Source: Candidatus Moraniibacteriota bacterium
Lineage (GTDB): Bacteria; Patescibacteriota; Minisyncoccia; Moranbacterales; UBA1568
DNA: 64,000 nt
Direction of reading: 5' to 3'
Assembly (NCBI GenBank): GCA_018061645.1
Contig: JAGOTT010000001.1
Span: 65,090 to 129,089 of the forward strand
In this document: one piece after another, positions 7,717 to 55,379 of the stretch
Position numbering within the stretch: position 1 is the first letter of the stretch
How the letters are laid out: every line of letters starts with the position of its first letter
The notes under the pieces: model-generated
What the model was told of the DNA's origin: nothing
Database searches by the model: none
The model's input: only the letters and a program-made list of their open reading frames with translations
Translations under genes and position numbers: made by a program

Positions 7717-7718
7717 TT

Positions 7719-39897: not shown

Positions 39898-40260
39898 ATG
39901 GAAAAGGATATCCTGAAGGAGAAGATGGATGGATTAGCGAAGGGTGTCTATGATGTGACAAAGAAATTTCCAAAGGATGAGATTTATGGAATAACATCGC
40001 AGTTGAGAAGGGCATCCTTATCGGTTATCCTGAATTATGTCGAAGGATTTGCTCGAACGGGTGACAAGGAATTGAAAAACTTTCTTCAGATATCGTACGG
40101 GTCGCTGAAAGAAACGAAATACCTTATATTTTTCTGTACCCGAGAAAAGTATATGACAAAGAAGGAGTATGGAGCTCTTATGGCGTTGACAGATGAGATA
40201 GGGGCGATGCTTTGGAAAAGAATCCAGAGCGTGAAAGGAAGAATCGCTGCTGGTAAGTGA
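39898..40260 (+). CDS. Four-helix-bundle protein (23S rRNA IVS protein family)
   Basis: 120 aa; QLRRASLSVILNYVEGF, FLQISYGSLKETKYL. Confidence 0.9.
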   Translation: MEKDILKEKMDGLAKGVYDVTKKFPKDEIYGITSQLRRASLSVILNYVEGFARTGDKELKNFLQISYGSLKETKYLIFFCTREKYMTKKEYGALMALTDEIGAMLWKRIQSVKGRIAAGK

Positions 40261-40271
40261 GTGTTCGCTAT

Positions 40272-40314
40272 AAACTGTTTTCTGTTGACTGTTAATTGTT
40301 GATTGTTAACTGTT
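40272..40314. repeat. Family-2 repeat / right IR of four-helix-bundle gene B
   Basis: aaactgttttctgttgactgttaattgttgattgttaactgtt immediately abutting ugd ATG. Confidence 0.65.
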
Positions 40315-41625
40315 ATGAAGTTGTCCTTCATCGGGACGGGGTACGTGGGGCTGGTGTCGGGGACGTGCATGGCGGAAATCGGTCACGAGGTGATCTGTGC
40401 GGATATCGACAAGAAGAAAATCGACAAGCTCAAGCGGGGAGGAATCCCGATCTATGAGTTCGGTCTCGAGGAGCTGATCAAGGAGAACGTGCGCCAGGAA
40501 CGGCTGTCCTTCACGACGGACGTGGGTAGGGCGATCCGCGAGGCGGATGTCATTTTCTCCGCGGTTGGAACGCCGCCCCATCCCAAGACCGGCGAGGCGG
40601 ATCTCCGGTACGTGTTCGCAGCGGCGGAAACCTTCGGAAAGAACCTGAACGGGTACAAGATCTTCGTGAACAAATCCACGGTCCCGGTCGGGACGGCGGA
40701 ACGGGTGCACGCCGCGATCGCGAAAGCAAGTGATGGAAAATTCGAGTTCGATGTCGTCTCGAATCCGGAATTCCTCCGCGAGGGCGCGGCGGTCAAGGAT
40801 TTCCTCAATCCGGACCGGGTCGTCGTCGGTGCGGACAGCGAGCGTGCCTGGGAGATAATGGAAAAGGTCTATCGCCCGATCGCCCGTTCGGGGCGTCCGG
40901 TGGTGCTGACCGACGTGAAAAGCGCGGAAATCATCAAATACGCGTCGAACGCATTTCTTGCGACCAAGATATCTTTCATAAACGAGATCGCCCGGTTCAT
41001 CGACAAGGCCGGCGGCAACGTGAAGGAGGTGTCACGCGGGATGGGATTCGACAGCCGGATCGGCTCGCGATTCCTCTATGCCGGTATCGGGTATGGCGGG
41101 TCGTGCTTCCCGAAGGACGTGAAGGCGCTCATCCACACGGGCAAGGAGCATGGCGTGGACTTCACCATTCTCGAAGCGGTGGAGGCGACCAATGAGAGAC
41201 AGAAGCTCCTGCCGGTCGCGCATCTGCGGAAATCGCTCAAGACGCTCAAAGGGAAGCGGATCGCGCTTTGGGGTCTTTCGTTCAAACCGCGGACCGACGA
41301 TGCGCGCGAAGCGCCGGCACTTTCGATCATCGAGGCGCTCACCAAGGCAGGGGCGTCGATTCAGGCTTTCGATCCGGTCGCGACCGAGAACGCCAAAGGA
41401 TTCATCGGCAGGAACGCGAAAGTGAAGTATGTGACGAAACAATACGATGCGCTCGACAAGGCGGATGCGCTCGTCATCGTCACCGAGTGGGATGAGTTCC
41501 GTACCGCGGATTACAAGGAGATCGGCAAGCGCATGAAAGGGCGGGTGATCGTCGATGGACGCAATATCCTCGAGCGCGAGGAAGCCGAAGCCGCGGGATT
41601 CGTTTACTATGGGGTTGGAGTCTGA
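40315..41625 (+). CDS. ugd: UDP-glucose 6-dehydrogenase
   Basis: MKLSFIGTGYVGLVSG, GGSCFPKDV catalytic Cys motif, 436 aa. Confidence 0.9.
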   Translation: MKLSFIGTGYVGLVSGTCMAEIGHEVICADIDKKKIDKLKRGGIPIYEFGLEELIKENVRQERLSFTTDVGRAIREADVIFSAVGTPPHPKTGEADLRYVFAAAETFGKNLNGYKIFVNKSTVPVGTAERVHAAIAKASDGKFEFDVVSNPEFLREGAAVKDFLNPDRVVVGADSERAWEIMEKVYRPIARSGRPVVLTDVKSAEIIKYASNAFLATKISFINEIARFIDKAGGNVKEVSRGMGFDSRIGSRFLYAGIGYGGSCFPKDVKALIHTGKEHGVDFTILEAVEATNERQKLLPVAHLRKSLKTLKGKRIALWGLSFKPRTDDAREAPALSIIEALTKAGASIQAFDPVATENAKGFIGRNAKVKYVTKQYDALDKADALVIVTEWDEFRTADYKEIGKRMKGRVIVDGRNILEREEAEAAGFVYYGVGV

Positions 41626-41642
41626 TAGACAATAGACCAAGA

Positions 41643-41655
41643 ACCAAAATCCAAT
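41643..41655. repeat. Left inverted repeat flanking four-helix-bundle gene C (accaaaatccaat)
   Basis: perfect 13-bp reverse complement at 42083-42095. Confidence 0.65.
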
Positions 41656-41671
41656 CACCAAGGAAATTCCG

Positions 41672-42043
41672 ATGACCAATGACCAATCCCCGAAAAAGAA
41701 ATTCGATCTTGAGGATCGGACGCTTGATTTTGCGAAGCGAGTCGTACGGATGTGTAAGGAGCTACCGACGAACACCGTAAACGATAATCTTGTAGATCAA
41801 GTGATCCGCTCCGCTGGTTCGGTCGGAGCGAATTATCGTGAAGCGAATGATGCGCTTGGTACGAAAGACTTTCTGATGCGTCTGAAGATTTCTCGAAAAG
41901 AGGTGAAAGAGACACATTTCTGGCTGGAGCTTATCATCGAAGCAAATCCGGATCTGAAGAAAAGAATCGAAAGCCTGTTTCAAGAATCGCTCGAGTTGAA
42001 AAAGATTCTTTCTGCTATAATCACGAAACTCCAGAATAAATGA
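41672..42043 (+). CDS. Four-helix-bundle protein (23S rRNA IVS protein family)
   Basis: 123 aa; VIRSAGSVGANYREAN, FLMRLKISRKEVKETHFWL; close paralog of 50352..50723. Confidence 0.9.
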   Translation: MTNDQSPKKKFDLEDRTLDFAKRVVRMCKELPTNTVNDNLVDQVIRSAGSVGANYREANDALGTKDFLMRLKISRKEVKETHFWLELIIEANPDLKKRIESLFQESLELKKILSAIITKLQNK

Positions 42044-42082
42044 TTCAGTGATTGTTTCTTGATGATTGATCATTATCTGGTT

Positions 42083-42095: not shown

Positions 42096-42106
42096 AATTG
42101 GTGATT

Positions 42107-43429
42107 ATGAAAGTGTTATTTCTCAATTATGAGTATCCTCCGCTCGGTGGAGGTGCGGCGAACGCGACGCGGTATATCCTGCGGGAGTTTTCGCGCATGC
42201 CGGGTGTCGAGGCACATCTCGTGACGAGCGGGATGGGGAAGGAGTATGAGAAGGAACATATCGGCGGATCCGTGTGGGTGCATCGGCTGCCGATTGGCAA
42301 GGATCCGGGAAAGATCCACTCGCAGTCGGTGCGGGATCTGATTGTCTACAGCGCGAAGGCGTGGTGGTTTTCTTCGTGGATCATCCGTACGGCGAAACGC
42401 GAGGGAAATCCCTTCGACCGGACGATTGCCTTTTTCGGGATTCCCTGCGGGGCGCTCGCTCTTTGGTTCAAGTGGCGGTTTGGTATCCCATATGTCGTGT
42501 CGCTCCGCGGGTCGGATGTCCCCGGATACAGCGAGAAGTATGACCGGCTCTATCTTTTCCTCGCGCCGTTCGTCCGGCTCGTGTGGAAGAAGGCGCTCGC
42601 GGTCGTTCCGAACAGTCGGGGGCTCGCGGAACTTGCCGGAAAGACCGCTCCGCGACAGGCATTCGAAATTATTCCGAACGGTGTGGACACGGAGGAATTC
42701 CGTCCCGATCCGGCGCGCGAACGTGACGGATATTTCCGCATACTGGCCGTGTCCCGGCTTACGCCGCGGAAGGGGATTCGATTCCTCATCCGGGCGATGT
42801 CGATACTTTCTCCGTCTGTCATTGCGAGCGAAGCGCGGCAATCCAGTGAAAAGGGAAAAGGACTGGATCGCCACGCCTCTGGCGAAGACGTCGGGGCTCG
42901 CGATGACAGATATTCGAAACTGGAACTCTGGATCGCGGGTGACGGGGAGGAGAAAGCGGAACTTGAAGTGCTCGCGAAGGAATGCGGCGTCTCCGACAAG
43001 GTGAAGTTCTTCGGGGCGGTACCGCATGAGCATCTCGGCCGATACTACGGACTTGCGGACGTCTTCTGTCTGCCGTCGCAGAACGAGGGCATGAGCAACA
43101 CCGTGCTCGAGGCGCTCGCGGCGGGGCTCCCGATCGTCGCGACGGTGACCGGCGGGACGGAGGAATTGATCCGTGACGGGGAGAACGGTCTCTTCGTCGT
43201 ACAACGGTCGCCGGAGGATCTCGCCGAGAAGCTCGGAAAACTCTTGGCCGACGAGTCACTCCGAGTGCGTATGGGAGAGGCGGGCCGGAAGCGTGCCGAG
43301 GAGATGAATTGGGAAAGCGTTGCAGGCCAATTTCTTGAGCTGTGCTCAAGAAAAAAAGCACAAATCTTAGAACACAAAGATCCAAACAAAACACAGACCA
43401 CAAAACTGAAAACTGACCGATCGGAATGA
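42107..43429 (+). CDS. Glycosyltransferase family 4 with in-frame palindromic-repeat insertion in interdomain linker
   Basis: MKVLFLNYEYPPLGGGAANA; C-terminal EGMSNTVLEALAAGLPIV; inserted peptide SVIASEARQSSEKGKGLDRHASGEDVGARDDR from repeat 42817-42908. Confidence 0.85.
   Translation: MKVLFLNYEYPPLGGGAANATRYILREFSRMPGVEAHLVTSGMGKEYEKEHIGGSVWVHRLPIGKDPGKIHSQSVRDLIVYSAKAWWFSSWIIRTAKREGNPFDRTIAFFGIPCGALALWFKWRFGIPYVVSLRGSDVPGYSEKYDRLYLFLAPFVRLVWKKALAVVPNSRGLAELAGKTAPRQAFEIIPNGVDTEEFRPDPARERDGYFRILAVSRLTPRKGIRFLIRAMSILSPSVIASEARQSSEKGKGLDRHASGEDVGARDDRYSKLELWIAGDGEEKAELEVLAKECGVSDKVKFFGAVPHEHLGRYYGLADVFCLPSQNEGMSNTVLEALAAGLPIVATVTGGTEELIRDGENGLFVVQRSPEDLAEKLGKLLADESLRVRMGEAGRKRAEEMNWESVAGQFLELCSRKKAQILEHKDPNKTQTTKLKTDRSE
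42817..42908. repeat. Family-1 palindromic repeat element, in-frame inside GT4 gene
   Basis: tgtcattgcgagcgaagcgcggcaatccagt ... ctggatcgcc...ctcgcgatgaca. Confidence 0.8.
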
Positions 43430-44397
43430 CGGACACTTCTATGCTCTCAAGGAAAAATATCTTTTTTCTCCTGAAGTTCGCGGTTGCCGCGGGACTCGTG
43501 GCGCTCCTCGTACGGAACGTGGATTGGGTGGCGATCGGCGAGGAGTTTTCCGAAGCGTCGCTTCCGCTCGTGGCGCTCGCGTTCGTCTTCTATATCGTCG
43601 GGATGCTGATATCCGTCGGCAGGTGGCAGGCGACGGCGCGGTTCAAGAAGTTCGATCTTCCCTTTTCGGATGCGGTCCGGTTTCATTTCGCCGGACTTTT
43701 CCTCAACAATTTCCTGCCGTCGTTTCTCGGTGGGGACGCCTATCGGAGCTATCTTCTGGGGAATCCGGGGAAACGCTATTCCGCAGCTGCCTCGACCGTC
43801 ATCTTCGTCCGTTTCGTCGGTCTCTGGTCGACGATCGCGCTTTTCCTCGTATTCGGGTTCCTCGCGTTCGATGCCGTGTTTTCGCAGCCGATGTTCGCGC
43901 TGTTCGGAATCGGTCTCGGATGTTTTTTCGCGTTCGACGTGGCACTGACGCTTTTTTCCGATCGTGCTCCGGTGCAGTGGCTGTTCGGGATTTTTCCGGA
44001 CAAACTCCGGAACTTCTTCTATGAGATAGGAGGATTCACGGACCGGAAGTTCGTCCGGGAGAGTTTTCTCGTCTCGATCCTGTTCTCGTTCGTCGGGGTC
44101 GGGTTATTCAATCTGGCTCTTTTCTGGTCTTTCGGAGAGCATATCTCCGTCCTTCCGTATCTCTCGGTCGTTTTTCTTGTCTCGGTCGTATCCAGTCTTC
44201 CGATTTCGGTGAACAATATCGGTCTCAAGGAGTGGTCGTATTACACCTTTTTCCCGCTTATCGGCATCAGTCCGGAAGCTGCGCTTGCCGTGGCGCTCCT
44301 CGGGCGGTTTCTCCAGATGTTCGCGAGTCTCTTCGGCGCGCCGTCCTTCTTTCGAAGGAAAAGGAACCGGATAGCGGAAGATACCCGGGATTCGTAA
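43426..44397 (+). CDS. UPF0104/lysylphosphatidylglycerol-synthase-TM-like (flippase-like) membrane protein
   Basis: 323 aa, ~8 TM helices; N-terminal LLKFAVAAGLVALLVRNVDW typical of PF03706 proteins found next to GT2 genes. Confidence 0.6.
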   Translation: MTDTSMLSRKNIFFLLKFAVAAGLVALLVRNVDWVAIGEEFSEASLPLVALAFVFYIVGMLISVGRWQATARFKKFDLPFSDAVRFHFAGLFLNNFLPSFLGGDAYRSYLLGNPGKRYSAAASTVIFVRFVGLWSTIALFLVFGFLAFDAVFSQPMFALFGIGLGCFFAFDVALTLFSDRAPVQWLFGIFPDKLRNFFYEIGGFTDRKFVRESFLVSILFSFVGVGLFNLALFWSFGEHISVLPYLSVVFLVSVVSSLPISVNNIGLKEWSYYTFFPLIGISPEAALAVALLGRFLQMFASLFGAPSFFRRKRNRIAEDTRDS

Positions 44398-44474: not shown

Positions 44475-46118
44475 TCAATATGTCAGGCATTTCTCCGGGA
44501 ATGGCATCCGCGGTTCCGAGCGCGAAGCCGGATCGAATACGGCTCCGAGCGTTCCGAACGGTATCAGATCATCAGTCGACGACGGTTTGCGCTCATCGAT
44601 AAAAAGGCGATTGAATCCGTCCGGAGCATCCCGCATTTCGCCTCTGAAGTAGCATCCTTGGTAGCCGTATTCGGCCGAAAGCACGTAATACATCGATTTG
44701 ACGTTGTGGCTTTCCCCGGAGATAAGAATCGGAATATCCTTGTGCGGGAATCGATGGAGCGTTTCATCGGCGATGGAACGCAGTTGTCCAAGGGTAACCT
44801 TGGCTTCGGTTCCGAATCGCAAGTCACGACCGCTTTCTTCCGCTGATGTCTGTGACATATCCAATTCATGCAGGTATTTCGTTGTCGCTTGAAAATTGAT
44901 CAGAATCAAGGCGATTCCAGCGGCTACTGTGGCGTTCTTGAGCCAGATGCTCCTGACAGCGCCGACGATACGATCGGCAGCGATGCCAAGGAAGATGAAT
45001 AACGGAGGAATGATCCCGAGATAGAAACGTGTCTGGATCTCGTATGCCACGAATACGGTGGCAAAAAAGAATCCGGCGAACCATAGTCCGACGAAAGCGA
45101 GCGCCGTTTTGCGTTTCATATCAGAAGCCGATCTCCATCTCTGGTATGCCGATACTGTGATAAATCCGAATATCATCATCGCAGGGATGGAGTATGGCAA
45201 TAAAGCCCGGCATTTTTTGTCGCAGGTCATCGAGAAGCCTTCCGTTTTGATCACATCGGTATCCTGCTGTCCGGTAACGGTGAGCCAGGTGACGCGTGAT
45301 GCCTGCTGGTAAGATCGAAAAATCTTCTCGTGCCAGCCATGCCCAACGCCATGATACGTATCGTCCGTAAGCGCCTTTTTGAATGTCTCCGTATTTTCTC
45401 CGCCGGTTTTCCATTCGTGTACAAAAATCGGGAATTGCAGTGCCGTAACTATGGCGATACCGAAGAATATCTCCCGAAGACGCAAGGATCTTGAGAGGAC
45501 AAGAAACATCGTCAGTCCGATCAGGAGTCCTGCGATCGCTACGAGGTGCAACTGTGCGATTATGCCGACGCATGTGGCTGCTCCGACAAGAAGCCATCGA
45601 CGCGTAGCGCCTTTTCTCTCGATCGCTTCGAGAAAAAACAAGGCGAAGAGCGTCGTGAAAAACGGGAGGCCGTTCGGATTCCATGTGAAACGGGAAAATG
45701 TCACCAGAAACAGTGAAACGCTTGCCAGCGCGGTGAACCACAGGGACAGCGGAAGGGGAATGAACCGTTGAAGCAACAAAAAAAGAAGGGGAATCGTAAG
45801 AACACCGAAAACAAGGTCGGGATACGCGAAACTTTCCGCCGTGCCGCCGAAAATCTTTCCTGAAAAATACTGGAAATAGTAGGAAATCGGTCCGAGGTGA
45901 AATCCCGTGCTGCCTGCTTCGGGTCCGAGAAGCGGCAGCGACGTGATTCCATGCGCCATCGCCTGATTCATGATGATAGCATCGCGAGCCTGGTCCGATT
46001 TGAATACGAGCCAATCGCTATGGTGAACCGATCGCAGCCCGATGGCAACGACGATGATGATCGCTGACAATGCGAGCAGGAGCTTTTTCCGTAGGTCTGG
46101 AACCTTATCAAGGCACAT
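44475..46118 (-). CDS. GT-C fold membrane glycosyltransferase, GT39/ArnT/PMT-like
   Basis: start set at MCLDKVPDLRKKLLLAL; loop-1 motif FKSDQARDA (DE-type); >10 TM helices. Confidence 0.6.
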   Translation of the reverse strand: MCLDKVPDLRKKLLLALSAIIIVVAIGLRSVHHSDWLVFKSDQARDAIIMNQAMAHGITSLPLLGPEAGSTGFHLGPISYYFQYFSGKIFGGTAESFAYPDLVFGVLTIPLLFLLLQRFIPLPLSLWFTALASVSLFLVTFSRFTWNPNGLPFFTTLFALFFLEAIERKGATRRWLLVGAATCVGIIAQLHLVAIAGLLIGLTMFLVLSRSLRLREIFFGIAIVTALQFPIFVHEWKTGGENTETFKKALTDDTYHGVGHGWHEKIFRSYQQASRVTWLTVTGQQDTDVIKTEGFSMTCDKKCRALLPYSIPAMMIFGFITVSAYQRWRSASDMKRKTALAFVGLWFAGFFFATVFVAYEIQTRFYLGIIPPLFIFLGIAADRIVGAVRSIWLKNATVAAGIALILINFQATTKYLHELDMSQTSAEESGRDLRFGTEAKVTLGQLRSIADETLHRFPHKDIPILISGESHNVKSMYYVLSAEYGYQGCYFRGEMRDAPDGFNRLFIDERKPSSTDDLIPFGTLGAVFDPASRSEPRMPFPEKCLTY

Positions 46119-46153
46119 ATTTTTTCGAAGCCGTTTTTTCACCCGAAAAGTCT

Positions 46154-48397
46154 TCAGGGCATGAACGGATAGATCTTCACATACTGTCCCGGGCGGCCGT
46201 TGATGAGGAGTTCCCACTCGGCGCCATCGGTTTTTTCATAGTACTTGTCGAACCGGATGACGTCCTTGCGGAGATCGTCGACAGCGATCTTGACCCGTCC
46301 GGTAGTGCGGCTCTCCCGTCCGGAAGAGACGACGACATAATCGAACGTATCGTTTTGGTAGAGTTTCCAGTCGAAGTTGCTCCGGCAGATCCCGTCGAAG
46401 AATCGGCAGACGCCGTTCTTGTCGGTCCAGATGGTGAGATCCTTGGCATTCGGGAGGCTGTTGAGATACATCGCCGCCTCGTAGCTTCCGTCACCCATGT
46501 CTTTCACGTTCACGTATCGGTCCTGTGGGAGAAGCGTCGAGGCGTAGCTCATCGGGAACGGGGTATTCGAAAGCGAGACGAGCGAGGCGATGGCGATGCT
46601 GGTGAGGACCACCGGAAGAGCGGAAGCGAAACGGATTTTCGATACGAGCGTGCCGATGGCGATACCGGCGATGATTCCGGCGACGGGGTAGAGCATGATC
46701 TGATAGCGGGTTATGGCGCCGACGCCGTTCACCGAGCTTCCGAGGTGGTAGAGCGCGATGAAGACGATTCCGTAAAGCAGTGTTTTCCCGGCGGTCGTTC
46801 GTGAGAAAGCCGGGCGCACGAGGAGAAGTCCTCCGCCAAGAAAGAGTCCGGCGAAGACGATCGGAACGACTCCGAAGAGGAGCGGATAAAAATTCGTCGC
46901 GAAGACGCCGAAAAGCCCGGCGTCGAGATAGATGGTCTTCGGGGCGGAGAGAAGTGACTGGAAATCGTAGCGTGCCATGCCGGCCCACACGTTCCATGAG
47001 ACGAACGAGAGCATCCCGACCCAGAATGCCGCGATGGCGGCGGAAACCCATCGGCTCCGATTCCGGAAGAACCGCATGATCGTTTCGGAAAAACGGGATC
47101 TGTTTAGGAAACGGTCGATGGCGATGGCGGCGATGATCGAAAGGAAGATCGGCGCGGTGCTTACGAACGCCTGCGAGAGGATGGTCGCGTTCAGGAGTTT
47201 TTCCGGCCGAACCCAGGTCGCCGGAAAGAGTACGAAGAAGGTCGAGATCGCCCCGAACGTCCAGAGAGCGTAGGCGAGAAGCGATCGTTTGAGATATGGC
47301 AGGAACGGCCGGTCGCGTTTCATGAGCACATATTCGAGGAAGACGACCCCGAACATGAGGACGAAGAGGATATTTCCGACGTATTTCGTGAGAAGCACGA
47401 GTCCGAGAATCACCGCCGAGAGGAAAAGAAAGGCGATATGTCCCCGTTTCAGATAGGTGAGGTAGGCGAGGAACGAGAGCGGTGCGAAGACCCACAGGAG
47501 GGAATCGGGATTGACGATCTTCGTCATGCCGAGCGTGATCGGAGAGAGGATAATGAGCGGATACGTGACGAGCGCGATCGTCCGCCCGAGGAGCCGGTCG
47601 AGCAGGAAGTAGAAGAGAGGGAGGAATATCGCCGCGGCGATGACGATACCGATGCGGAACGAGAAGAAGAGCTGCTCGAGTCCGACATCGCTCCCATTCG
47701 TCCGTTTCCAGGCGACCGGGTCGCTTTCGTGGAGCAGTCCGGTGCCGCTCGCGAAGGCGATAGTCAGTCCGGGCTTGTCGCTGACGCTCGTCTTTCGGAA
47801 TTCGAGGTTTCCGAGGGATTCCCAATATTTCGGGATGCGGTCATGGATCCAGAGTGCTTCGTCGACCCCGGAGAATTTTCCGAGATCCTTCGTGGCGAAG
47901 AAAAGGAATACGAACGTGGTCGCGATGACGAACAGGATCGCGGGCGCTCCCTGTCGGCTGAACCATGCCCGAAGAGTCGGTTCCGGCACGGAAACATCAT
48001 GAATGACCGTCCATTCCTGCAGGATGAGTTTTCGGACAAGGAACATCGAGACGCCGAATGCGTAGAAGGTGACGGCGATCTTCGCGCTGGCGGGAATGTC
48101 GGCGTAGAGATTCCAGGCGAGGACGAAAGTGAGAATGGTCGGAAAGGTTGCAATGAACAATGCTTTGAAGACAGGGACGAATTTTCTTTCCGATACCGAA
48201 AAAAATACGGCTGCGCCGAGCGCAAGACCGAGCGTCGGAAGCGCGACGATGAATATCTCCCGAGGAAGCTCCGCAAGAGAGGCGGGAACCCAGGGAATGT
48301 GTCGTGCAATGAATACTCCGGCGACAAGTGCGAGTATCGCGGAAAGTGCGATGACTGTCGGGGTCGTTTTACCGGCGGCGGCACGGAATCGGTTCAT
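46154..48397 (-). CDS. GT-C fold membrane glycosyltransferase, GT39/ArnT/PMT-like
   Basis: 747 aa; loop motif GVDEALWIHDR; many TM helices and C-terminal soluble domain. Confidence 0.6.
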   Translation of the reverse strand: MNRFRAAAGKTTPTVIALSAILALVAGVFIARHIPWVPASLAELPREIFIVALPTLGLALGAAVFFSVSERKFVPVFKALFIATFPTILTFVLAWNLYADIPASAKIAVTFYAFGVSMFLVRKLILQEWTVIHDVSVPEPTLRAWFSRQGAPAILFVIATTFVFLFFATKDLGKFSGVDEALWIHDRIPKYWESLGNLEFRKTSVSDKPGLTIAFASGTGLLHESDPVAWKRTNGSDVGLEQLFFSFRIGIVIAAAIFLPLFYFLLDRLLGRTIALVTYPLIILSPITLGMTKIVNPDSLLWVFAPLSFLAYLTYLKRGHIAFLFLSAVILGLVLLTKYVGNILFVLMFGVVFLEYVLMKRDRPFLPYLKRSLLAYALWTFGAISTFFVLFPATWVRPEKLLNATILSQAFVSTAPIFLSIIAAIAIDRFLNRSRFSETIMRFFRNRSRWVSAAIAAFWVGMLSFVSWNVWAGMARYDFQSLLSAPKTIYLDAGLFGVFATNFYPLLFGVVPIVFAGLFLGGGLLLVRPAFSRTTAGKTLLYGIVFIALYHLGSSVNGVGAITRYQIMLYPVAGIIAGIAIGTLVSKIRFASALPVVLTSIAIASLVSLSNTPFPMSYASTLLPQDRYVNVKDMGDGSYEAAMYLNSLPNAKDLTIWTDKNGVCRFFDGICRSNFDWKLYQNDTFDYVVVSSGRESRTTGRVKIAVDDLRKDVIRFDKYYEKTDGAEWELLINGRPGQYVKIYPFMP

Positions 48398-48486
48398 GGA
48401 TATGGTTGCGTTCTCCGGTGGGAAGCGGTATACTTCCGAAAGAAGAAAGCTTTTAATAAGGCATTATTCTCTTTCACTCTATCACA

Positions 48487-50268
48487 ATGTCCGAAGAAAG
48501 GAAACCATTTTCCAGCCGTTTTTCGAGGCCGATTCTCATCCTGATCGCCATTCTCGCGTTTGGCGGGTTCCTTCGGCTGTATCATTTTTCCGACTGGCTC
48601 CACTTCGAACTCGACCAGGCGCGCGATGCGCGGGTCATCGACGAGGCACTTTCCGGGGGCCCTGGCGAGCTGACGCTTCTCGGCATGAAGGCCGGGGGAA
48701 CGTCGCTTCGGCTCGGTCCCGGGTTCTACTACCTTGAGTATCTTTCCGGGCTCGTTTTCGGTGCGACCCCGCAGGGGATAGCGATGATCATCCCTATCCT
48801 TTCGGTCGCCTCGATCGGGGTGTTTTACCTGTTCGCGCGGCGGTTTTTCGGGGTGTCGGTCTCGCTCGCGCTCGCGCTCCTTTTTTCCGTTTCCGAATAC
48901 CTGGTCATGTACGGGCGGTTCGCGTGGAATCCGAACCCGCTGCCGTTCTTCTCGCTCCTTGGATTCTATGCGTTGCTTCGGTCCGTTTCTCCGGATGAGC
49001 GGCGACCGGGACGGTGGTTTGTCCTATCCGCATTTTCCATCGGTCTCGCGACGCATCTCCATTTCCTCGCCTTCCTCTCGCTTCCGGTGGTCGCGGCGAT
49101 TTTTCTCCTCGTCCGTCGGCCGAGATTTTCCTCCAAGGCGTGGGCGGCGGCGTTCGCGGCGTTTATCGTGTTCTATGTTCCGGTCGTGCTCAACGAGATC
49201 GAGACCGGCGGTGCGAATTCCAGGGCGTTCCTTTCGGCAATCACCGAAAAATCATCGAAGACGACCCGGACGGCTCCGGAGAAACTTATCCGGAACATTA
49301 CCGAGCACGGACTGGGATATCTTACGATCCTGACGGGGATCGAGGACGGGGGATTCGCGGATGTCGACCTGCGTCGCGAGGGAGTGTTCCGTATCGAATG
49401 CGATGCGAGGTGCCAGGACGGGAAAGTCGTCGGATCCGTATCCATGGCCGCATTCGCGCTTTCCCTGATTTCTGCTTTTTATCTGTGGTTTCGAATCCGA
49501 GATCGGAGGCAGTCGGACGTACTGCTTTTGTCCGGGATATGGTTTCTGGTTGTCTTTTCCGTGCTTTTCCCGCTTGCGTACGGGTTCTCGCCGCGGTTCT
49601 TCCTTGCTGCCGCGCCGATACCGTTCCTCCTGCTTGGGTTCCTCTTGGAGGGCGCGCGCGCGGTGTTTCCGGGTCGGAAGTCTGTGATGTGGGTCGGAGC
49701 GGCGATACTCGCCATCTTTGTTGCATTGAACGTCTTCGGAGTCGCGGAACGGTTCCGCCAATCGTCGCTCGCGTTGACGGAGGCGGTAGACACTCCGGCG
49801 GATCGTATCCTCAAGGAAAAGATCCGTGTGCCGCTCGAGCAGCAGATGAAGATTGTTGATTATCTCAAGACGCGGTCGGATGAGCGGGGGTGGCCGGTGT
49901 ATATGCACAGTGAACCGGAACATCGGCGGGCGCTCAAGTATCTTCTCGAGCGACGCGGTGTGGAGAACGCCGGATTCGGATTGACGGGTATTTATGAAGA
50001 GGGGATCTATGTGCTCATTCTCCGATCGAAGTCGGATCTCTATGACGGAATGAAGAAGTATCTCGAGAAATATGATGTCGTCGAGAAACATTCCTTCGGG
50101 ACGCTCACGATGATAGAATTCCGACCGAAGGAAACGTCCATCGAGGCGAAGCGACAGGTCTTCGTTCCGCAAGGGAAGGTGCAGGATAACCCGACCGCGC
50201 TCCCGCGCTACACCTGGCGCGAATGGTGGGAGCGGAAGAATGATCCGGGGAATGATGAAGAAGAATAA
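48487..50268 (+). CDS. GT-C fold membrane glycosyltransferase, GT39/ArnT/PMT-like
   Basis: 593 aa; HFELDQARDARVIDEAL loop-1; YGRFAWNPNPLPFF; divergent from 46154..48397. Confidence 0.65.
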   Translation: MSEERKPFSSRFSRPILILIAILAFGGFLRLYHFSDWLHFELDQARDARVIDEALSGGPGELTLLGMKAGGTSLRLGPGFYYLEYLSGLVFGATPQGIAMIIPILSVASIGVFYLFARRFFGVSVSLALALLFSVSEYLVMYGRFAWNPNPLPFFSLLGFYALLRSVSPDERRPGRWFVLSAFSIGLATHLHFLAFLSLPVVAAIFLLVRRPRFSSKAWAAAFAAFIVFYVPVVLNEIETGGANSRAFLSAITEKSSKTTRTAPEKLIRNITEHGLGYLTILTGIEDGGFADVDLRREGVFRIECDARCQDGKVVGSVSMAAFALSLISAFYLWFRIRDRRQSDVLLLSGIWFLVVFSVLFPLAYGFSPRFFLAAAPIPFLLLGFLLEGARAVFPGRKSVMWVGAAILAIFVALNVFGVAERFRQSSLALTEAVDTPADRILKEKIRVPLEQQMKIVDYLKTRSDERGWPVYMHSEPEHRRALKYLLERRGVENAGFGLTGIYEEGIYVLILRSKSDLYDGMKKYLEKYDVVEKHSFGTLTMIEFRPKETSIEAKRQVFVPQGKVQDNPTALPRYTWREWWERKNDPGNDEEE

Positions 50269-50303
50269 GCAGAGGATACAAGAGACAAGAAATGCAACGT
50301 TGG

Positions 50304-50327
50304 AAGAAACAAGGTACAAGAAACAAG
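50304..50327. repeat. Left inverted repeat flanking four-helix-bundle gene D (aagaaacaaggtacaagaaacaag)
   Basis: 22/23 match to reverse complement of 50737-50760. Confidence 0.7.
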
Positions 50328-50351
50328 ATACAAAAAATCCGAAATACGAAA

Positions 50352-50723
50352 ATGACCGAAGTGAAACAAAAAGAGAAGAGATTTGACCTGGAGGAAAGGA
50401 CGTTGGAGTATTCGAAAAGAGTTCTCCGGTTGTGCAAAAGTCTCCCAAAGAATGGTATCAATCGGGAGATGGCTGATCAGCTGTTTCGTTCCGCAAGCTC
50501 CGTCGGGGCGAATTATCGGGAAGCGAACGACGCCCTTGGTAAGAAGGATTTTGTCATGAGGATAAAGATATCCAGAAAAGAAGCGAAGGAGGCCGAGTAT
50601 TGGTTGAAGCTGGTTGCGGAAGGTAATCCTGAAATGAAAGAAAAAATGAGTGGGCTTATCGATGAAACAAAGGAGCTGCGGATGATATTTTCTTCCATAA
50701 TAAGCAAGGTTTCAGTGAATTGA
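50352..50723 (+). CDS. Four-helix-bundle protein (23S rRNA IVS protein family)
   Basis: start at MTEVKQKEKRFDLEERTLEYSKRVL aligning with paralog 41672; LFRSASSVGANYREAN. Confidence 0.9.
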   Translation: MTEVKQKEKRFDLEERTLEYSKRVLRLCKSLPKNGINREMADQLFRSASSVGANYREANDALGKKDFVMRIKISRKEAKEAEYWLKLVAEGNPEMKEKMSGLIDETKELRMIFSSIISKVSVN

Positions 50724-50736
50724 TTTTTCGTGATTT

Positions 50737-50760
50737 TTGTTTCTTGTAACTTGTTTCTTG
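50737..50760. repeat. Right inverted repeat flanking four-helix-bundle gene D (ttgtttcttgtaacttgtttcttg)
   Basis: partner of 50304-50327. Confidence 0.7.
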
Positions 50761-52308
50761 ATGATTAACGCTATGAGCTTAAGGAAAACATTGGCAGTGC
50801 TGGCGGTCATCGTTCTGATTGGGGCAGTTCTGCGCTTCTGGGGGCTTGGGAATAATCCGTTCAATGCTGATGAGTTCCTCGATATCAACTCCGCCTACGG
50901 GTACGCGCAGACGGGGGAATGGAAGGCGTGGGATTTCAATTTCGGTCAGGTGTCGGAAGTCAATATCAACCAGGCGCGTGATGAGCGTGCGAACGTGTAC
51001 AAGTGGCAGGTGGCGCAGCTCTTCTCTTTCCTTCCGCCGACGGAAGCGGTCGCGCGGAGCGTGTCGGCGCTGTGGGGCGTGTTCTCGATTCTCGCGATGT
51101 TCTTTGCCGGGTGGATGTTTTCGGGAAAGAAACGGATCGGGCTCTTCGCGGCGGCACTCTTCGCCGTATCCGTTTCCGGGATCGAGTTCGATCGCAAGCT
51201 CCGCATGTACGCGATGTTCTTTCCGCTCTTCCTTCTCATGTCCGTGTCGCTTTTCGGTCTCTACGAGCGGGAATATAAGGGCAGGATAAAAGCGCTCCGG
51301 ACCTTCTGGGAGAAGACCGACCTGAACCCCGCGTATCTCCTCCCGCTTCTCGTATCCGGATATCTTTCCTTTCAGACGCACCAGTTGTCGATCAACATCA
51401 TCCCGATTTTCGCCGTCTATGTGGTAACGATGATCGTTCTCGCTTGGCGCAGGAAACGATCCGCCGAGGACAAGTATATGGGAACCGCGGCGCTGGGGCT
51501 GGTCGTCGCGATCGTCGCGTGGACCGCGGCGCCGGAGAAGATGAAGGAACTGCTCGGCGCACTCGTGCTCTTCGATAACCATTACTCGTATTTCCGCTAT
51601 GTCGTGCGTGACTACGCGCAGCCGATCCTTGCGGCGCTTCTCTTCGGGTATGGTGCGTGGCATCTCGTGAAAAAGCTCGGAAAAGAGAAAGAGACCGCGT
51701 GGCTGCTTGTCTCGTCGCTTGTGCCGCTTGTGATGGCGGTCTGGTTCTGGCGACGCAACGAGGGACAACAATACATCTTCTTCGCGCAGTCCTTCATGGC
51801 GATACTGGTCGCTTCCGGCGGATACGGGCTCGTGCGGTTCGTGAATGACGAGTTTTCGTCCCGATGGAAGCATGCCGTGTGCGCGGCGACGCTCCTCCTT
51901 GCGGTGCTCGTTCCGAATTGGGGATACTTTTTTTGGGAAAACAACACGTATCATGAGACATCGACGGGGAGTTCGGCGAACTACCGGAAGATCTACCAGT
52001 ATTTCCGCAACAATGCGGGCGATGGCGACGCGCTCATCGCGCGGAATTTCCGCAACTACTACTGGAGCGGTACGGAGACCAAGGTACTTGATTTCGGCGG
52101 GGAACTTTCTGTCTCAAAACTTTCGGTCGGGGAAATAGAGGCGTTCATGACGAAACATCCGACCGGTTGGTTCATCGCGTCGGACAACGACATGGATTAT
52201 GTTTCGCGCGATGCGGAAATATTCATCGGGAAAAATATGGAGCGGCAGAGCCATTCGCTCATCCGGGGGAACGTTGAAGTGTGGCGGTGGGGGAAAAATA
52301 GTCTGTAA
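50761..52308 (+). CDS. GT-C fold membrane glycosyltransferase, GT39/ArnT/PMT-like
   Basis: ATG after IR (track used TTG at 50737); loop-1 NPFNADEFLDIN (PMT DE motif); ~11 TM helices. Confidence 0.65.
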   Translation: MINAMSLRKTLAVLAVIVLIGAVLRFWGLGNNPFNADEFLDINSAYGYAQTGEWKAWDFNFGQVSEVNINQARDERANVYKWQVAQLFSFLPPTEAVARSVSALWGVFSILAMFFAGWMFSGKKRIGLFAAALFAVSVSGIEFDRKLRMYAMFFPLFLLMSVSLFGLYEREYKGRIKALRTFWEKTDLNPAYLLPLLVSGYLSFQTHQLSINIIPIFAVYVVTMIVLAWRRKRSAEDKYMGTAALGLVVAIVAWTAAPEKMKELLGALVLFDNHYSYFRYVVRDYAQPILAALLFGYGAWHLVKKLGKEKETAWLLVSSLVPLVMAVWFWRRNEGQQYIFFAQSFMAILVASGGYGLVRFVNDEFSSRWKHAVCAATLLLAVLVPNWGYFFWENNTYHETSTGSSANYRKIYQYFRNNAGDGDALIARNFRNYYWSGTETKVLDFGGELSVSKLSVGEIEAFMTKHPTGWFIASDNDMDYVSRDAEIFIGKNMERQSHSLIRGNVEVWRWGKNSL

Positions 52309-52391: not shown

Positions 52392-52694
52392 TTACGGATG
52401 ATTGTTCTGTCCGGCGCCGCCGTGCCCGATGACCCGGCATCCCGTCTTCGAGGCGAAGATCGACGGTTCGAAGGTCGCAATACTTGGTTTGCGTTTGTCC
52501 AGACAGACACAGTATGTCATGCCTCGGATGCGGCAGATACATTTTTCGCCACTTCCGACCATTCGTTGGATATGTACTTCGTTGTCGTCGATCTTTTCCA
52601 GATACGGCCTGCCGATCGTGTGACCCTTGGCGCGGACGATTTTTGCTATCGCTTCGAGTTCTATCGTTGAAACTTTTCGGGCTATTTTACCCAT
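52392..52694 (-). CDS. Small Cys-rich hypothetical protein
   Basis: 100 aa; ggag RBS upstream; CxC...CxC pattern; GC3 moderately high. Confidence 0.35.
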   Translation of the reverse strand: MGKIARKVSTIELEAIAKIVRAKGHTIGRPYLEKIDDNEVHIQRMVGSGEKCICRIRGMTYCVCLDKRKPSIATFEPSIFASKTGCRVIGHGGAGQNNHP

Positions 52695-53210: not shown

Positions 53211-53459
53211 TCAAGCGGCGATTTTCATCCGTTCGATGATCCGCTGAGAAAGCTGCTTGGACAAGATATGCTTGCCCTCGCCTTTGAGCGCGAAGTATTC
53301 GGTGACGACCTCGTGCGTTACCACCTCGTCGATCGCCTGGCTGTTCGTGTCGTACCAGTCGGAAAAGCCGCTATGGCCGTTCTGTTCCCGGTCGAGCTTG
53401 CAGCAGATGGTGGCGTAGATGAGGTCGAGCAGAATGATTCTTTTCTCCGAGGGGTTCAC
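53211..53459 (-). CDS. Hypothetical small protein (GTG start, first gene of two-gene module)
   Basis: 82 aa; GC3 ~85%; aggaga RBS 6 nt upstream of GTG. Confidence 0.5.
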   Translation of the reverse strand: MNPSEKRIILLDLIYATICCKLDREQNGHSGFSDWYDTNSQAIDEVVTHEVVTEYFALKGEGKHILSKQLSQRIIERMKIAA

Positions 53460-53558
53460 GGAAGTCTCCTAGTGTGTGAGTTGGTAAACCAACAAAAAAA
53501 GTCCTCATCGGACCTGTGGAGTATGACAGATTTCCCGTTTTCTGTCAAGGATTCCTGA

Positions 53559-53870
53559 TTGACGGGGGAACGGTTGTCGTGGTACAAGGAAGTGTCTTCA
53601 ATGACACAGAGAGAGGGTATCGGTATGCCGCTTATCTTCGCGGGTTTCGTTCTTTTGTTTCTGATAGCGGTCTTCGCTCCGTATGTCAACGCTATCGCGG
53701 CGACATTCATCATCGCCGGCCGGTTGGTCGTCGCTTTTTTCATCAGCCTCATTCCTCTGGGCTTCCTGATTGTTTCCATCGTGGCGGTGTATCTCGGGTT
53801 TCAGGATATGCGTCGGGAGCTTCGGAGACCGAGGCGCCGAGTCGGTTCCGACGGCTTCGAAGATTTTTGA
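53559..53870 (+). CDS. Small 2-TM membrane protein, hypothetical
   Basis: start probably at internal Met (MPLIFAGF...); weak. Confidence 0.35.
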   Translation: MTGERLSWYKEVSSMTQREGIGMPLIFAGFVLLFLIAVFAPYVNAIAATFIIAGRLVVAFFISLIPLGFLIVSIVAVYLGFQDMRRELRRPRRRVGSDGFEDF

Positions 53871-53906: not shown

Positions 53907-55379
53907 TCATGCTTGCGACTTATTCTTCGTGAAGAGTTTCCGGATCGGGTTCAGGTCGGATTCCTTCAGTTCCTTTGCCAGGAAAAGCGGGAGATAGTAG
54001 AGGACGAATAGGAATGCTCCGGAGAAGATGAATGATACGGGCTCGGAGGGGAGTATTTTCGAGAGGAGCGCGATGCCTGTCGCGGAGACAAGGGAAACGA
54101 CCCAGAGCCTCGTCGAGAGACGGACGGAGAAATGTCGCTCGGTATAGATGAGGATGGCGATCATGAGGATGAACGAGACGAGTGTGGTGGCGCCTGCCGC
54201 ACCGACGATACCGAAAGGAGGGATGAGTGCGAAATTGAGGACGAGTGCGAGCAGTACGCCGAACCCCGAGAGTTTCATCGGGATTTTCACCAGTCCGGCG
54301 CCGTTGAGCGCGAAGGCGAGGACGTAGAAGACCGTGAGGAACCCGGCGCCTACGGCGAATACGCTCATCGCGGATGCCGCGCCGAGGTAGTGGTCGCCGT
54401 AGAAGAGATGGAGGATCGGTTCGGCATAGACGGCAAGCAGCGTGACGAACGGAAAGAGGAGAAACGCCATGAGGCGGAGTGATTTCTCTACGAGCTCCCG
54501 CGTCTTTTCCGGTCCCTGGTCGGCGTTGCTTTTCGCGATCGCCGGAACCATCATGACCGCGAGCGCGTAAAAAAGGTAGTAGGGGATGCGCCCCATGGTG
54601 ATGGCGGCGTTGTAGAGACCCGTCGCGATGTCATCCCGGAGGAGCGCCTGCACGAGATACAGGTCGAGTGTGAGGACGAGCTCGTAGAAGACGAGGAAGA
54701 GCGTGAACGGCCAGGCGTATGAGAGCAGGAGTTTTCCGGGGAATGTGAAGTCCTGCCCCGGTTCCTGCGGGAAGGATTTTTTCGTGATGATCCAGTCGGC
54801 GACGAGACCGACGAAGAAGACCGAGAGCGGTGCCAGGATGTAACCGGAAACCGATCCCGGGAGACCGAAGAGGAACGCGAGCCCGACGATGAAGAACAGA
54901 CGCGCGAAGGAGCGGATGATCTTGAGCGTCGCCTGGAAGCGGAAATAGTGGAGTCCGTTGAAATAGTGGAGATAAAAGGACGCGGCGGCGAAGGCGGGAA
55001 TGATGAGTGAGGAAAGCGCGAAAAGCGAAGCCAGCTCCGGGTCGCCGAGAAGCTGGGCGATGAGCGGGGAAGCGAGAAAGAATATCACGGTGAGGCTCCC
55101 CATGATGAGCGCCTGGAGTCTCATACCGACCCGCTTGATGACCGGAACCTTCCAGGGGGCGTTTTCGAAGACTTCGGAGAGGTATTTCGACATCGCGGTC
55201 GGGAGGCCGTTTCCGACGAGTACGATGATCATGGTCGTGAGCGTGATGACGAGCCCGTAGCGACCGTAGTCGGCGGGACCGAGAATCCGTCCGACGGAGG
55301 CGTGGACGATGTAGCTCGCGATATTGAAGACGATCTCGGAAGCGGTGAGCCACACGAGTGCGCGTGAGAAGTTTTTCAT
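53907..55379 (-). CDS. Oligosaccharide flippase (Wzx-like, MOP superfamily)
   Basis: 490 aa, 12-14 TM; N-terminal GRILGPADYGRYGLV motif. Confidence 0.75.
   Translation of the reverse strand: MKNFSRALVWLTASEIVFNIASYIVHASVGRILGPADYGRYGLVITLTTMIIVLVGNGLPTAMSKYLSEVFENAPWKVPVIKRVGMRLQALIMGSLTVIFFLASPLIAQLLGDPELASLFALSSLIIPAFAAASFYLHYFNGLHYFRFQATLKIIRSFARLFFIVGLAFLFGLPGSVSGYILAPLSVFFVGLVADWIITKKSFPQEPGQDFTFPGKLLLSYAWPFTLFLVFYELVLTLDLYLVQALLRDDIATGLYNAAITMGRIPYYLFYALAVMMVPAIAKSNADQGPEKTRELVEKSLRLMAFLLFPFVTLLAVYAEPILHLFYGDHYLGAASAMSVFAVGAGFLTVFYVLAFALNGAGLVKIPMKLSGFGVLLALVLNFALIPPFGIVGAAGATTLVSFILMIAILIYTERHFSVRLSTRLWVVSLVSATGIALLSKILPSEPVSFIFSGAFLFVLYYLPLFLAKELKESDLNPIRKLFTKNKSQA

Follow-up and report, generated by a model that had tools for sequence, protein, structure and literature searches.

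A block of ArnT/PMT-like GT-C genes as the likely core of a lineage-conserved transmembrane glycosylation locus in Candidatus Moranbacteria

The closest described relatives of the locus reported here, a block of four GT-C-type glycosyltransferase (GT) genes on a 64,000-nucleotide (nt) stretch of Candidatus Moraniibacteriota DNA (contig JAGOTT010000001.1, positions 65,090 to 129,089; hereafter the window, in which all positions are counted), come from envelope pathways of rather different bacteria. ArnC, a GT2 enzyme, and ArnT, a GT83 GT-C enzyme, serve the undecaprenyl-phosphate-4-amino-4-deoxy-L-arabinose modification of lipid A, and in Rhizobium the ArnT-like GT-C paralogs of the Rgt group, including RgtC, RgtD and RgtE, add galacturonic acid to the core of lipopolysaccharide (LPS) and to lipid A. 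The largest known bacterial GT-C paralog set belongs to the mycobacterial and corynebacterial pathway leading to phosphatidylinositol mannosides (PIM), lipomannan, lipoarabinomannan (LAM) and arabinan, where the GT-Cs act sequentially and extracytoplasmically after GT4 steps: the cytoplasmic GT4 enzymes PimA and PimB' are followed by the GT-Cs PimE, MptA, MptB and MptC, which use polyprenyl-phosphate-mannose. The structure of PimE, a GT-C of the PIM-pathway type, has reportedly been solved. Bacteria of the Candidate Phyla Radiation (CPR), or Patescibacteria, have genomes of about 1 Mb and almost no experimentally characterised envelope chemistry, and our search of the accessible literature library for GT-C enzymes in Patescibacteria or Moranbacteria returned nothing relevant.

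Within the Rhizobium system, RgtA and RgtB add galacturonic acid to 3-deoxy-D-manno-oct-2-ulosonic acid (Kdo) (PMC4402001). Gram-positive wall-polymer systems, e.g., CsbB/GtcA/YfhO, GtlA/GtlB, GacI/GacJ/GacK/GacL or CsdAB/CD/EF of Lactococcus lactis, come in two architectures, with either a membrane-linked GT-A enzyme or a soluble GT-A enzyme plus a transmembrane (TM) partner, together with a GtrA- or Wzx-type flippase; their GT-Cs are of the PMT_2/YfhO type with a DxD-like extracellular motif, and several GT-A/GT-C pairs can use one flippase (PMC8035078). Several GT-Cs per genome, dedicated to different acceptors, are a known pattern (PMC8035078; 10.1101/180810).

Here, we found that the four genes at positions 44475–52308 belong to an old gene block common to most Moranbacteria (about 80 species-level genomes). 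This block is probably the core of a lineage-conserved, multi-component transmembrane glycosylation locus, whose GT-Cs would transfer polyprenyl-phosphate-linked sugars outside the membrane. A first-pass annotation, made from the sequence alone, had described a tandem array of four GT-C proteins at exactly these coordinates. The four long open reading frames (ORFs) coincide with them and the GT-C assignment held, for A, B and C via the Pfam family PMT_2 and for D via fold and profile, whereas the genes are arranged not in tandem but as two divergent pairs. In the following list, EL1 denotes the first extracytoplasmic loop of the GT-C core:

44475–46217, minus strand: GT-C A (ORF; likely start M34 at 46118), EL1 motif SDQARD
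46154–48397, minus strand: GT-C B, 747 amino acids (aa), EL1 motif GVDEAL
48398–48486: divergent spacer between B and C, 89 nt
48487–50268, plus strand: GT-C C, 593 aa, ArnT-like, invariant EL1 motif HFELDQARD
50737–52308, plus strand: GT-C D (ORF; likely start 50761), 515 aa, EL1 motifs ADEFLD and RDERA

A and B run leftward and C and D rightward out of the 89-nt spacer, with a 23S_rRNA_IVP gene lying between C and D. A start of A at M34 would remove a 64-nt overlap with B, and the start of D at 50761 is likely because its orthologs have 515 aa. A shared promoter is presumed in the spacer, which contains no consensus sigma-70 site, simple sequence repeat (SSR) or invertible repeat; the sigma-70 promoter scan gave no enrichment over shuffled sequence and no operon boundaries, and the window gave no hits in Rfam or tRNA scans.

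The identity of A, B and C is carried by PMT_2 (PF13231), whose gathering cutoff of 26.1 bits all three pass with 35.5, 30.8 and 41.1 bits, respectively. PMT (PF02366; cutoff 22.7 bits), the second family proposed for checking, exceeds its cutoff only in E, a GT-C outside the block; C stays below it with 17.4 bits, and A, B and D give no match. C additionally showed a weak TMEM260-like match (23.0 bits), and no MIR domain was detected in A–D or E. Had the proteins been placed solely in unrelated families such as YfhO, this would have spoken against the GT-C annotation; neither Pfam nor NCBIfam, however, gave a YfhO match for any of the seven candidates A–F and H. In NCBI, a Candidatus Moranbacteria metagenome-assembled genome encodes a protein with 100% identity to C that is labelled ‘GT family 39’; for A–D this label is over-specific, as none of the four reaches the PF02366 cutoff. 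ArnT proper (GT83) was likewise rejected as a label: the NCBIfam ArnT models do not match A–D, let alone at equivalog level, and no arnA/B/D/E/F pathway is present among the window ORFs scanned.

All five loop motifs reported earlier were recovered by a six-frame search (SDQARD in A, GVDEAL in B, ELDQARD in C, NADEFLDI in D and NPDEQVHY in E), each after the first predicted TM helix or, in B, after the fifth, B having four additional N-terminal TM helices ahead of its GT-C core. The positive-inside rule places these motifs extracytoplasmically, the preceding TM helix being rich in Lys/Arg on its N-terminal side. C further carries a C-terminal extracytoplasmic alpha/beta domain. In the AlphaFold2 model of C (predicted local distance difference test, pLDDT, 85.2; predicted template modelling score, pTM, 0.87), the top Foldseek match in the PDB was ArnT (5F15, E = 7.9e-9) and the best 32 matches were all GT-C enzymes.

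D is mostly listed as ‘hypothetical protein’ in public records and gave no Pfam match even at E ≤ 10 and only sub-threshold NCBIfam noise. Its AlphaFold2 model, calculated from 30 orthologs (pLDDT 82.9, pTM 0.81), retrieved GT-C enzymes as all of its best 21 PDB matches, namely STT3/AglB/PglB, ArnT, DPY19, Pmt4, ALG9, EmbA and AftB; the most balanced overlap was that with ArnT (TM-score 0.55/0.53), and non-GT-C folds appeared only at a probability <0.35. Structure prediction, as suggested in the first-pass annotation, hence places both modelled proteins among GT-C enzymes with ArnT as best or best-balanced match, and both models have the acidic motif at the N-terminal end of the juxtamembrane helix that comes first after TM1. 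Among 1.84 billion representative proteins searched by profile, 1,818 relatives of D (representative clusters) were recovered at E ≤ 1e-3, and among distant full-length relatives (19–24% identity) 18 of 32 matched PMT_2 and 15 of 32 PMT. The resulting D-superfamily profile, referred to as A3, reaches Cupriavidus ArnT (5EZM) in the PDB at 5e-7 over about 360 residues, followed by yeast Pmt2 at 6e-6 and also Pmt1. In the ArnT alignment, D37-E38 of D fall on ‘PDEGRY’ (D55-E56) and E75-R76 on ‘FEKPP’ (E84-K85; the numbering of the PDB chain is offset by 3), positions which we take to be functionally important in ArnT. Based on predicted fold and profile, the D family is a GT-C family of the ArnT/PMT type, and its widespread ‘hypothetical proteins’ can be re-annotated as ArnT/PMT-like GT-C enzymes.

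With A3 as hhalign target, A scored 98.8%, B 96.5%, C 98.1% and B2, a B-like paralog of related genomes, 98.0%, while the negative controls Wzy_C and UPF0104 remained at ≤1%; in these alignments, D43 of C and D179-E180 of B fall on D37-E38 of D. The breadth of the profile is needed here: single-sequence phmmer searches of C and D against the PDB gave nothing relevant, the narrow profiles of C (A1) and D (A2) found no PDB match, and narrow hidden Markov models (HMMs) of A, B, B2, C and D scored near zero against an ArnT fragment in a local hmmsearch, which gave no direct residue mapping for A, B or C.

The name of the Pfam family PMT_2 invites the reading that the four proteins are protein O-mannosyltransferases (GT39), mannosylating Ser/Thr of secreted or S-layer/pilin proteins from polyprenyl-phosphate-mannose. 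The weak PMT and TMEM260-like scores of C would fit, as would the Pmt1, Pmt2 and Pmt4 structures among the fold and profile matches and the D-E pair of B and D, which resembles the ‘DE’ motif of PMTs. However, we consider this assignment unlikely, given that C does not reach the PF02366 cutoff and A, B and D lack this match altogether, that the MIR domain is missing, that ArnT and oligosaccharyltransferases rank above the Pmt structures in Foldseek and that no signature of a GDP-mannose or polyprenyl-phosphate-mannose synthase was found. PMT_2 itself is broad and extends to ArnT as well as to GT-Cs of wall polymers, GtlB among them (PMC8035078).

Conservation was assessed in a scan of one genome per GTDB species, in which 174 genomes contained a relative of C; 80 loci were retrieved for comparison and, wherever a lineage is named, belong to Moranbacteria/Patescibacteria. 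Many third-party annotation loci carrying the Moranbacteria block (L004, L006, L011 and others) are titled ‘uncultured Bdellovibrionales bacterium’ and are probably mislabelled. Synteny was counted by tblastn of the window proteins against the 80 loci, with a flank limited to 10 kb and only loci with enough flank in the denominators. The recurring order is an optional pair of ArnC-like GT2 and UDP-glucose 6-dehydrogenase (UGDH) genes, then GT4 and UPF0104, a variable GT-C slot and B facing leftward, C and D facing rightward, a leftward Wzx gene, in some loci a rightward Wzy_C gene, and a leftward RtcB gene. B is divergent from and adjacent to C in 60 of 70 loci, and D lies downstream of C in 51 of 66, directly adjacent in 45 of these. 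Upstream of the block, GT4 was present in 49/56 and UPF0104 in 50/56 loci; downstream, Wzx was found in 47/48, RtcB in 42/48 and, at the thresholds used, Wzy_C in 13/48. Within 10 kb of C, an ArnC-like GT2 (ortholog of at least 60% identity) occurred in 23/46 and UGDH in 28/46 loci. Since dozens of species-level genomes show this gene order, chance is far from sufficient to explain the clustering.

The number of GT-C genes per block ranges from 1 to 6, with a mode of 4 (22 genomes). Variation concentrates in the slot between UPF0104 and B, which holds an A-like gene, B2 (about 620 aa, motif DEHxW; e.g., L003 5774–7618, L018 at about 5552 and L041 2147–7520), both (5–6 GT-C genes) or neither; the window described here has A without B2, and A is missing from many relatives. 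The acidic motifs are at least 95% conserved in every family: D-Q-x-R-D in A (n = 12 orthologs), V-D-E-x-L-W including D179-E180 in B (n = 53), D-E-H-x-W in B2 (n = 34), E-L-D-Q-A-R-D including E41/D43/D47 in C (n = 76), and D-E-F-L-D (D37-E38-x-x-D41) together with R-D-E-R-A in D (n = 50). A loss of catalytic Asp/Glu residues in most paralogs, named beforehand as an observation that would refute the first-pass annotation, is therefore not seen in A–D, and the EL1 motifs are under strong purifying selection.

This conservation also bears on the idea that some of the paralogs are non-catalytic GT-C-fold proteins, acting as accessory or flippase-associated factors in the manner of archaeal Agl23, or as acceptor-binding partners. 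A, C and D do match the Agl23 model TIGR03663 weakly (1.6e-5 to 4e-4), and smaller GT-Cs have been speculated to need partner proteins (PMC8035078). These scores of 19–24 bits are, however, far from the cutoff of 126 bits, all families keep the acidic EL1 motif and D retains the equivalents of ArnT E84/K85, which makes a non-catalytic role improbable.

In BLASTP, A and C are related with 29.5% identity over 495 aa (E = 8e-54), whereas B, D and the candidates E, F and H are mutually undetectable. At the profile level, hhalign gave 100% for A against the C family and for B against B2, 60% for B against C and 17% for the narrow C against the narrow D profile, this last link emerging only via the deeper D-superfamily profile. 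The block therefore contains three ancient, separate GT-C families, A/C, B/B2 and D, rather than the product of a recent expansion. As each family has Moranbacteria-wide orthologs in conserved order, the set can be regarded as ancient and under purifying selection.

The first-pass annotation had instead proposed a recent paralog expansion, giving diverse or phase-variable surface decoration. The many GT-C genes in one window, the varying content of the slot beside B and the range of 1–6 genes per block are what such a scenario would produce. Nevertheless, it is largely refuted, and we regard it as highly improbable: except for the distant A/C pair, the families are beyond BLAST detection of one another, their orthologs follow the same order across about 80 species-level genomes and the motifs are under purifying selection. 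Switching fares no better, as the focal genes and the spaces between them are free of SSRs, homopolymer tracts, tandem repeats and invertible elements, and the sole inverted repeat linking A and C is a shared RFAWNPN-coding motif on opposite strands.

Elsewhere in the window, two to three further GT-C proteins had been suspected. One of them is established by Pfam, while the other two can be regarded only as probable GT-C-like proteins:

24892–26655, minus strand: GT-C E, PMT 41.4 bits and DUF2142 42.2 bits (both above cutoff), motif NPDEQVHY, outside the conserved block
34282–36345, minus strand: probable GT-C-like protein F, 687 aa, about 14 TM helices, invariant PEWDGY
3346–5154, minus strand: probable GT-C-like protein H, 602 aa, polytopic

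F had no Pfam, NCBIfam or PDB sequence match, and its family profile gave only coiled-coil noise against the PDB. It reached 69–84% against a GT-C profile in hhalign, the 24-member family profile (A4) aligning to A3 with 84% (E = 7e-6) over the GT-C core only. H resembles the NCBIfam putative glycosyltransferase LA_3751/LA_3752 at 2.2e-4, below cutoff, and scored 86% against A3; the metagenome scan returned relatives of H from one locus, too few for a profile. Pfam at E ≤ 10 gave only noise for both F and H.

The accessory genes named in the first-pass annotation, i.e., two Wzx flippases, a UPF0104 flippase-like protein and an O-antigen-ligase-like protein, are all present in the window, as are the three GT2 enzymes that had been taken for polyprenyl-phosphate-sugar synthases, of which the third (18996–19727) lacks a TM segment and any specific signature of such a synthase. 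The accessory genes are as follows:

38888–39832, plus strand: ArnC/GtrB/PgfS-like GT2, Pfam Glycos_transf_2 6e-33, TM helices 236–254 and 271–289
40303–41625, plus strand: UGDH, making UDP-glucuronic acid, three UDPG_MGDP_dh Pfam domains, TuaD 2.4e-171
42098–43429, plus strand: cytoplasmic GT4, Glycos_transf_1 1.5e-42
43426–44397, plus strand: UPF0104/MprF-type flippase-like protein, LPG_synthase_TM 1.9e-34, TIGR00374 64.2 bits (cutoff 43.2)
53907–55379, minus strand: Wzx flippase of the multidrug/oligosaccharidyl-lipid/polysaccharide (MOP) type, Polysacc_synt 2.5e-24, MurJ 7.6e-11
56294–57802, plus strand: Wzy_C protein of the O-antigen ligase/polymerase or O-oligosaccharyltransferase type, Wzy_C 2.2e-20
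57921–59420, minus strand: RtcB, conserved at the downstream end of the block
37995–38756, minus strand: soluble PpgS/GacI-like GT2, NCBIfam PpgS 1.2e-44
37502–37855, minus strand: DUF2304 partner with three TM helices, DUF2304 1.5e-13, adjoining the PpgS-like GT2
26695–27999: second Wzx, from the Pfam/NCBIfam scans
18996–19727: generic GT2 without TM segment and without specific polyprenyl-phosphate synthase signature

The GT2 at 38888–39832 is the candidate polyprenyl-phosphate-sugar synthase of the block. It aligns over its full length to the NCBIfam models of ArnC (8.7e-52) and PgfS (2e-42), in both cases below the equivalog cutoff (176 bits against a cutoff of 529 for ArnC), and two C-terminal TM helices, as found here, are typical of synthases of the GtrB/ArnC/DPM1 type. 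UGDH passes the cutoff of the NCBIfam NDP-sugar dehydrogenase subfamily. The PpgS-like GT2 and its DUF2304 neighbour have the arrangement of GacI/GacJ and PpgS/Rv3632, for which it was shown experimentally that a small membrane protein stimulates the lipid-phosphate-sugar synthase (10.1101/180810).

Taken together, GT-Cs with intact acidic motifs, GT2 enzymes of the polyprenyl-phosphate-sugar synthase type, putative flippases and Wzy_C are the components expected of a glycosylation system that works outside the membrane from a lipid carrier, as already proposed in the first reading of the sequence. While the parts, the fold, the motifs and the co-conservation of the genes come from the data presented above, the route of the sugar is modelled on the behaviour of these families elsewhere. 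The membrane-anchored ArnC/GtrB-like GT2 would work at the cytoplasmic face, charging polyprenyl phosphate with a monosaccharide taken from a nucleotide sugar, with the PpgS-like GT2 and its DUF2304 partner possibly forming a second loader. The Wzx-type MOP protein and/or UPF0104 would move the lipid-linked sugar to the outer face, where each GT-C could hand it to a site or acceptor of its own on a glycoconjugate of the envelope. As the GT-Cs fall into distinct families that are conserved together, they most likely represent non-redundant steps or serve different acceptors instead of being interchangeable variants.

Regarding the donor, O-mannosylation or arabinosylation had been put forward as models. 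UGDH and an AsnB-type amidotransferase (XrtA-type, 1.2e-184) in the cluster rather hint at uronic-acid sugars: as about half of the genomes have UGDH next to the ArnC-like GT2 and the amidotransferase gene is part of the cluster, a uronic acid or a derivative such as a uronamide may be the donor sugar, which we propose with lower confidence.

Among the known pathways, ArnC/ArnT is closest at the level of the enzymes. ArnT is the best or best-balanced structural match of C and D and the best match of the D-superfamily profile, with the D55 and E84/K85 positions aligned, and the locus combines an ArnC-like GT2 bearing two C-terminal TM helices with a neighbouring UGDH, comparable to Ugd. In contrast to that system, no homologs of ArnA, ArnB, ArnD or ArnE/F exist among the window ORFs scanned, three to five GT-Cs are found here instead of one, and to our knowledge CPR bacteria lack lipid A. 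The Rhizobium Rgt enzymes resemble this locus in that several ArnT-like GT-C paralogs occur, some of them adjacent; they use one lipid-phosphate uronic-acid donor, which would fit the adjacency of UGDH and GT2 seen here; they differ in acting on LPS, which is absent here, and uronic-acid use in our locus is suggested by gene context.

The Gram-positive wall-polymer systems agree in their parts list, i.e., a GT-A synthase, either anchored or soluble with a DUF2304-type partner, a candidate flippase of the Wzx type and a PMT_2-type GT-C with an acidic motif in an extracytoplasmic loop. They differ in that our GT-Cs have no detectable sequence relationship to YfhO, that the window encodes no GtrA-type flippase and that the GT-Cs cluster with the GT4-UPF0104 pair and not one-to-one with GT-A genes. 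GtrB/GtrC-type pathways follow the same working logic. The mycobacterial pathway (PimE, MptA-C, Emb and Aft; Ppm1; PpgS/Rv3632/Rv3779) resembles the locus in the PpgS-like GT2 and DUF2304 pair and in the Emb and Aft structures among the fold matches. Unlike in mycobacteria, no genes for decaprenyl-phosphate-arabinose (DPA) are present, Emb, AftA and AftB rank below ArnT, and the phylum is a different one.

The GT4-UPF0104 pair gives rise to a further interpretation, according to which it makes and flips a glycolipid primer that B, C and D, together with A or B2, extend on the outside by means of polyprenyl-phosphate-sugars, so that the block would be a lipoglycan assembly line analogous to the mycobacterial one for PIM, lipomannan and LAM. 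GT4 overlaps the UPF0104 gene by 4 nt, the pair lies directly upstream in 49–50 of 56 loci, a tighter linkage than that of any accessory gene except Wzx, UPF0104 is a member of the lipid-acting, flippase-like MprF family, and several distinct, co-conserved GT-C families are what sequential steps would predict. On the other hand, the argument is one of gene context, and no specific match ties GT4 to glycolipid synthases: generic exopolysaccharide GT4s lead its NCBIfam matches, and the monoglucosyl-diacylglycerol synthase Mgs follows only at 4e-17. We know of no lipoglycan described in CPR bacteria, and overall this interpretation appears possible but rather doubtful to us. Its boldest form would be a near-universal assembly line of Moranbacteria in which the GT4/UPF0104 lipid primer is elaborated by three to five GT-Cs including the D family, possibly with uronic-acid donors, into a lineage-specific lipoglycan or wall glycopolymer. 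This is a tentative and somewhat less probable proposal; if true, the product would be comparable to lipomannan/LAM or lipoteichoic acid, central to the envelope and perhaps relevant for host attachment.

Several points weigh against the preferred interpretation of a transmembrane glycosylation locus using polyprenyl-phosphate-sugars. One conserved GT2 synthase faces three to five GT-Cs, and the ArnC-like GT2 (23/46) and UGDH (28/46) are linked to the GT-Cs more weakly than GT4-UPF0104, partly because the flank was limited to 10 kb. A GtrA-type flippase is missing from the window, although in one relative (L001) a GT2-GtrA fusion adjoins D, and the Wzx-type protein scores best against models of the SpoVB/MurJ type and could serve peptidoglycan or another polymer. 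Moreover, the residue equivalence of A, B and C to ArnT is a two-step profile argument, complemented for C only by the position of the motif in the model, and the function of A–D is deduced from sequences and models rather than from biochemistry or genetics.

The system is ordinary in kind and its mechanism would be a textbook one, the gene set being neither a recent nor a switchable expansion. New are the recognition of the D family as GT-C, the definition of three co-conserved families and the lineage-wide synteny, and the value of these findings lies in annotation and comparative genomics rather than in new concepts. Still, that about 80 species-level genomes have retained three to six large GT-C genes points to a surface glycoconjugate of importance, and the block may bear on the host interaction of these likely episymbionts.

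Apart from the focal genes, the window gave several further observations. In the 1.6-kb gap between D and Wzx, two small minus-strand genes (about 52392–52694 and 53214–53561) are kept in the closest relative L006 with about 40% identity; one of them is Cys-rich (CICRIRGMTYCVCLD). Four ORFs were discarded as shadows of annotated genes: 57840–59441 (plus) is antisense to RtcB, 38015–38962 (minus) and 38007–38813 (plus) overlie the PpgS-like GT2, and 7707–9095 (minus) overlies a GT4 gene at 7719–8984 (plus). The glycan cluster also encodes a 957-aa protein (13658–16531, plus) with an LCAT/PGAP1-like lipase (alpha/beta hydrolase) domain. Moranbacteria are ultra-small, uncultured CPR bacteria that are generally regarded as dependent on scavenged lipids. 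In a CPR organism, this protein could play a part in the scavenging or remodelling of lipids.

The gene between C and D is one of four 23S_rRNA_IVP (bAvd-like four-helix-bundle) genes in the window, each placed between inverted arms of tandem heptamers, e.g., AACAGTT and AAGAAAC; cassettes of the same architecture with other arm sequences occur in two relatives:

50304–50759, plus strand: IVP cassette between C and D, arms 50304–50337 and 50726–50759, gene likely 50352–50723, Pfam 23S_rRNA_IVP 2.3e-16
2934–3355, minus strand: IVP cassette beside H, gene 2981–3328, IVP match 2.9e-34
39810–40314, plus strand: IVP cassette with inverted arms 39810–39840 and 40284–40314
41635–42071, plus strand: IVP cassette with inverted arms
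L006, 887–1355: IVP cassette of a relative
L079, 3368–3821: IVP cassette of a relative

In predicted RNA folds, the arms form a closing stem around a loop of 370–440 nt (z = -7.0 for IVP1 and -2.3 for IVP3), and in the C-D cassette this stem is found in both the minimum free energy and the centroid fold. On the 3' side, the arm extends as far as the start codon of the gene that follows (UGDH, D). The cassettes look mobile or proliferating because only 3 of the 80 related loci have one; the C-D gap is mostly 17–143 nt without an IVP gene. Their architecture is like that of rRNA intervening sequences, whereas the cassettes described here lie in mRNA spacers of a glycan operon, and they may be more novel than the GT-C block itself.

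The window further contains about 18 copies of a GC-rich hairpin repeat family (TGTCATTnnGAGCG; TGTCATTnnGAGCGnAGCGnnGnAATCC and variants), at about 9547, 12673, 13244, 24995, 25033, 25060, 25675, 25701, 25844, 25865, 25910, 37915, 37960, 42812, 56466, 56509, 56957 and 57560, none of them in the focal genes A–D. Copies inside ORFs keep the frame (about eight in E, four in Wzy_C and one each in the GT4 at 42098–43429 and a GT1-like gene at 8779–10197). Compared to the L006 orthologs (57–75% identity), they are clean in-frame insertions, of 30 aa in GT4 (75% identical) and about 29 aa in Wzy_C, similar in this respect to the Rickettsia palindromic elements. These in-frame insertions may likewise be more unusual than the GT-C block. 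A perfect 44-nt palindrome in the Wzy_C ORF (57196–57239) coincides with 14 aa inserted in frame when the protein is compared to its L006 ortholog.

A low-GC island (0.43) at 19683–21433 carries an AbiEi/AbiEii toxin-antitoxin pair (20016–21304) and is bounded by a perfect 40-nt direct repeat (19683–19722 and 21394–21433), which is a copy of the 3' end of the GT2 gene at 18996–19727; its appearance is that of an insertion that duplicated a long target. A MazF/PemK-type toxin gene (12742–13131, plus) and an AAA_14/DUF4143 ATPase gene (23462–24799, plus) also lie within the glycan cluster, and the left two-thirds of the window come across as a mosaic rich in insertions, in contrast to the conserved GT-C block.

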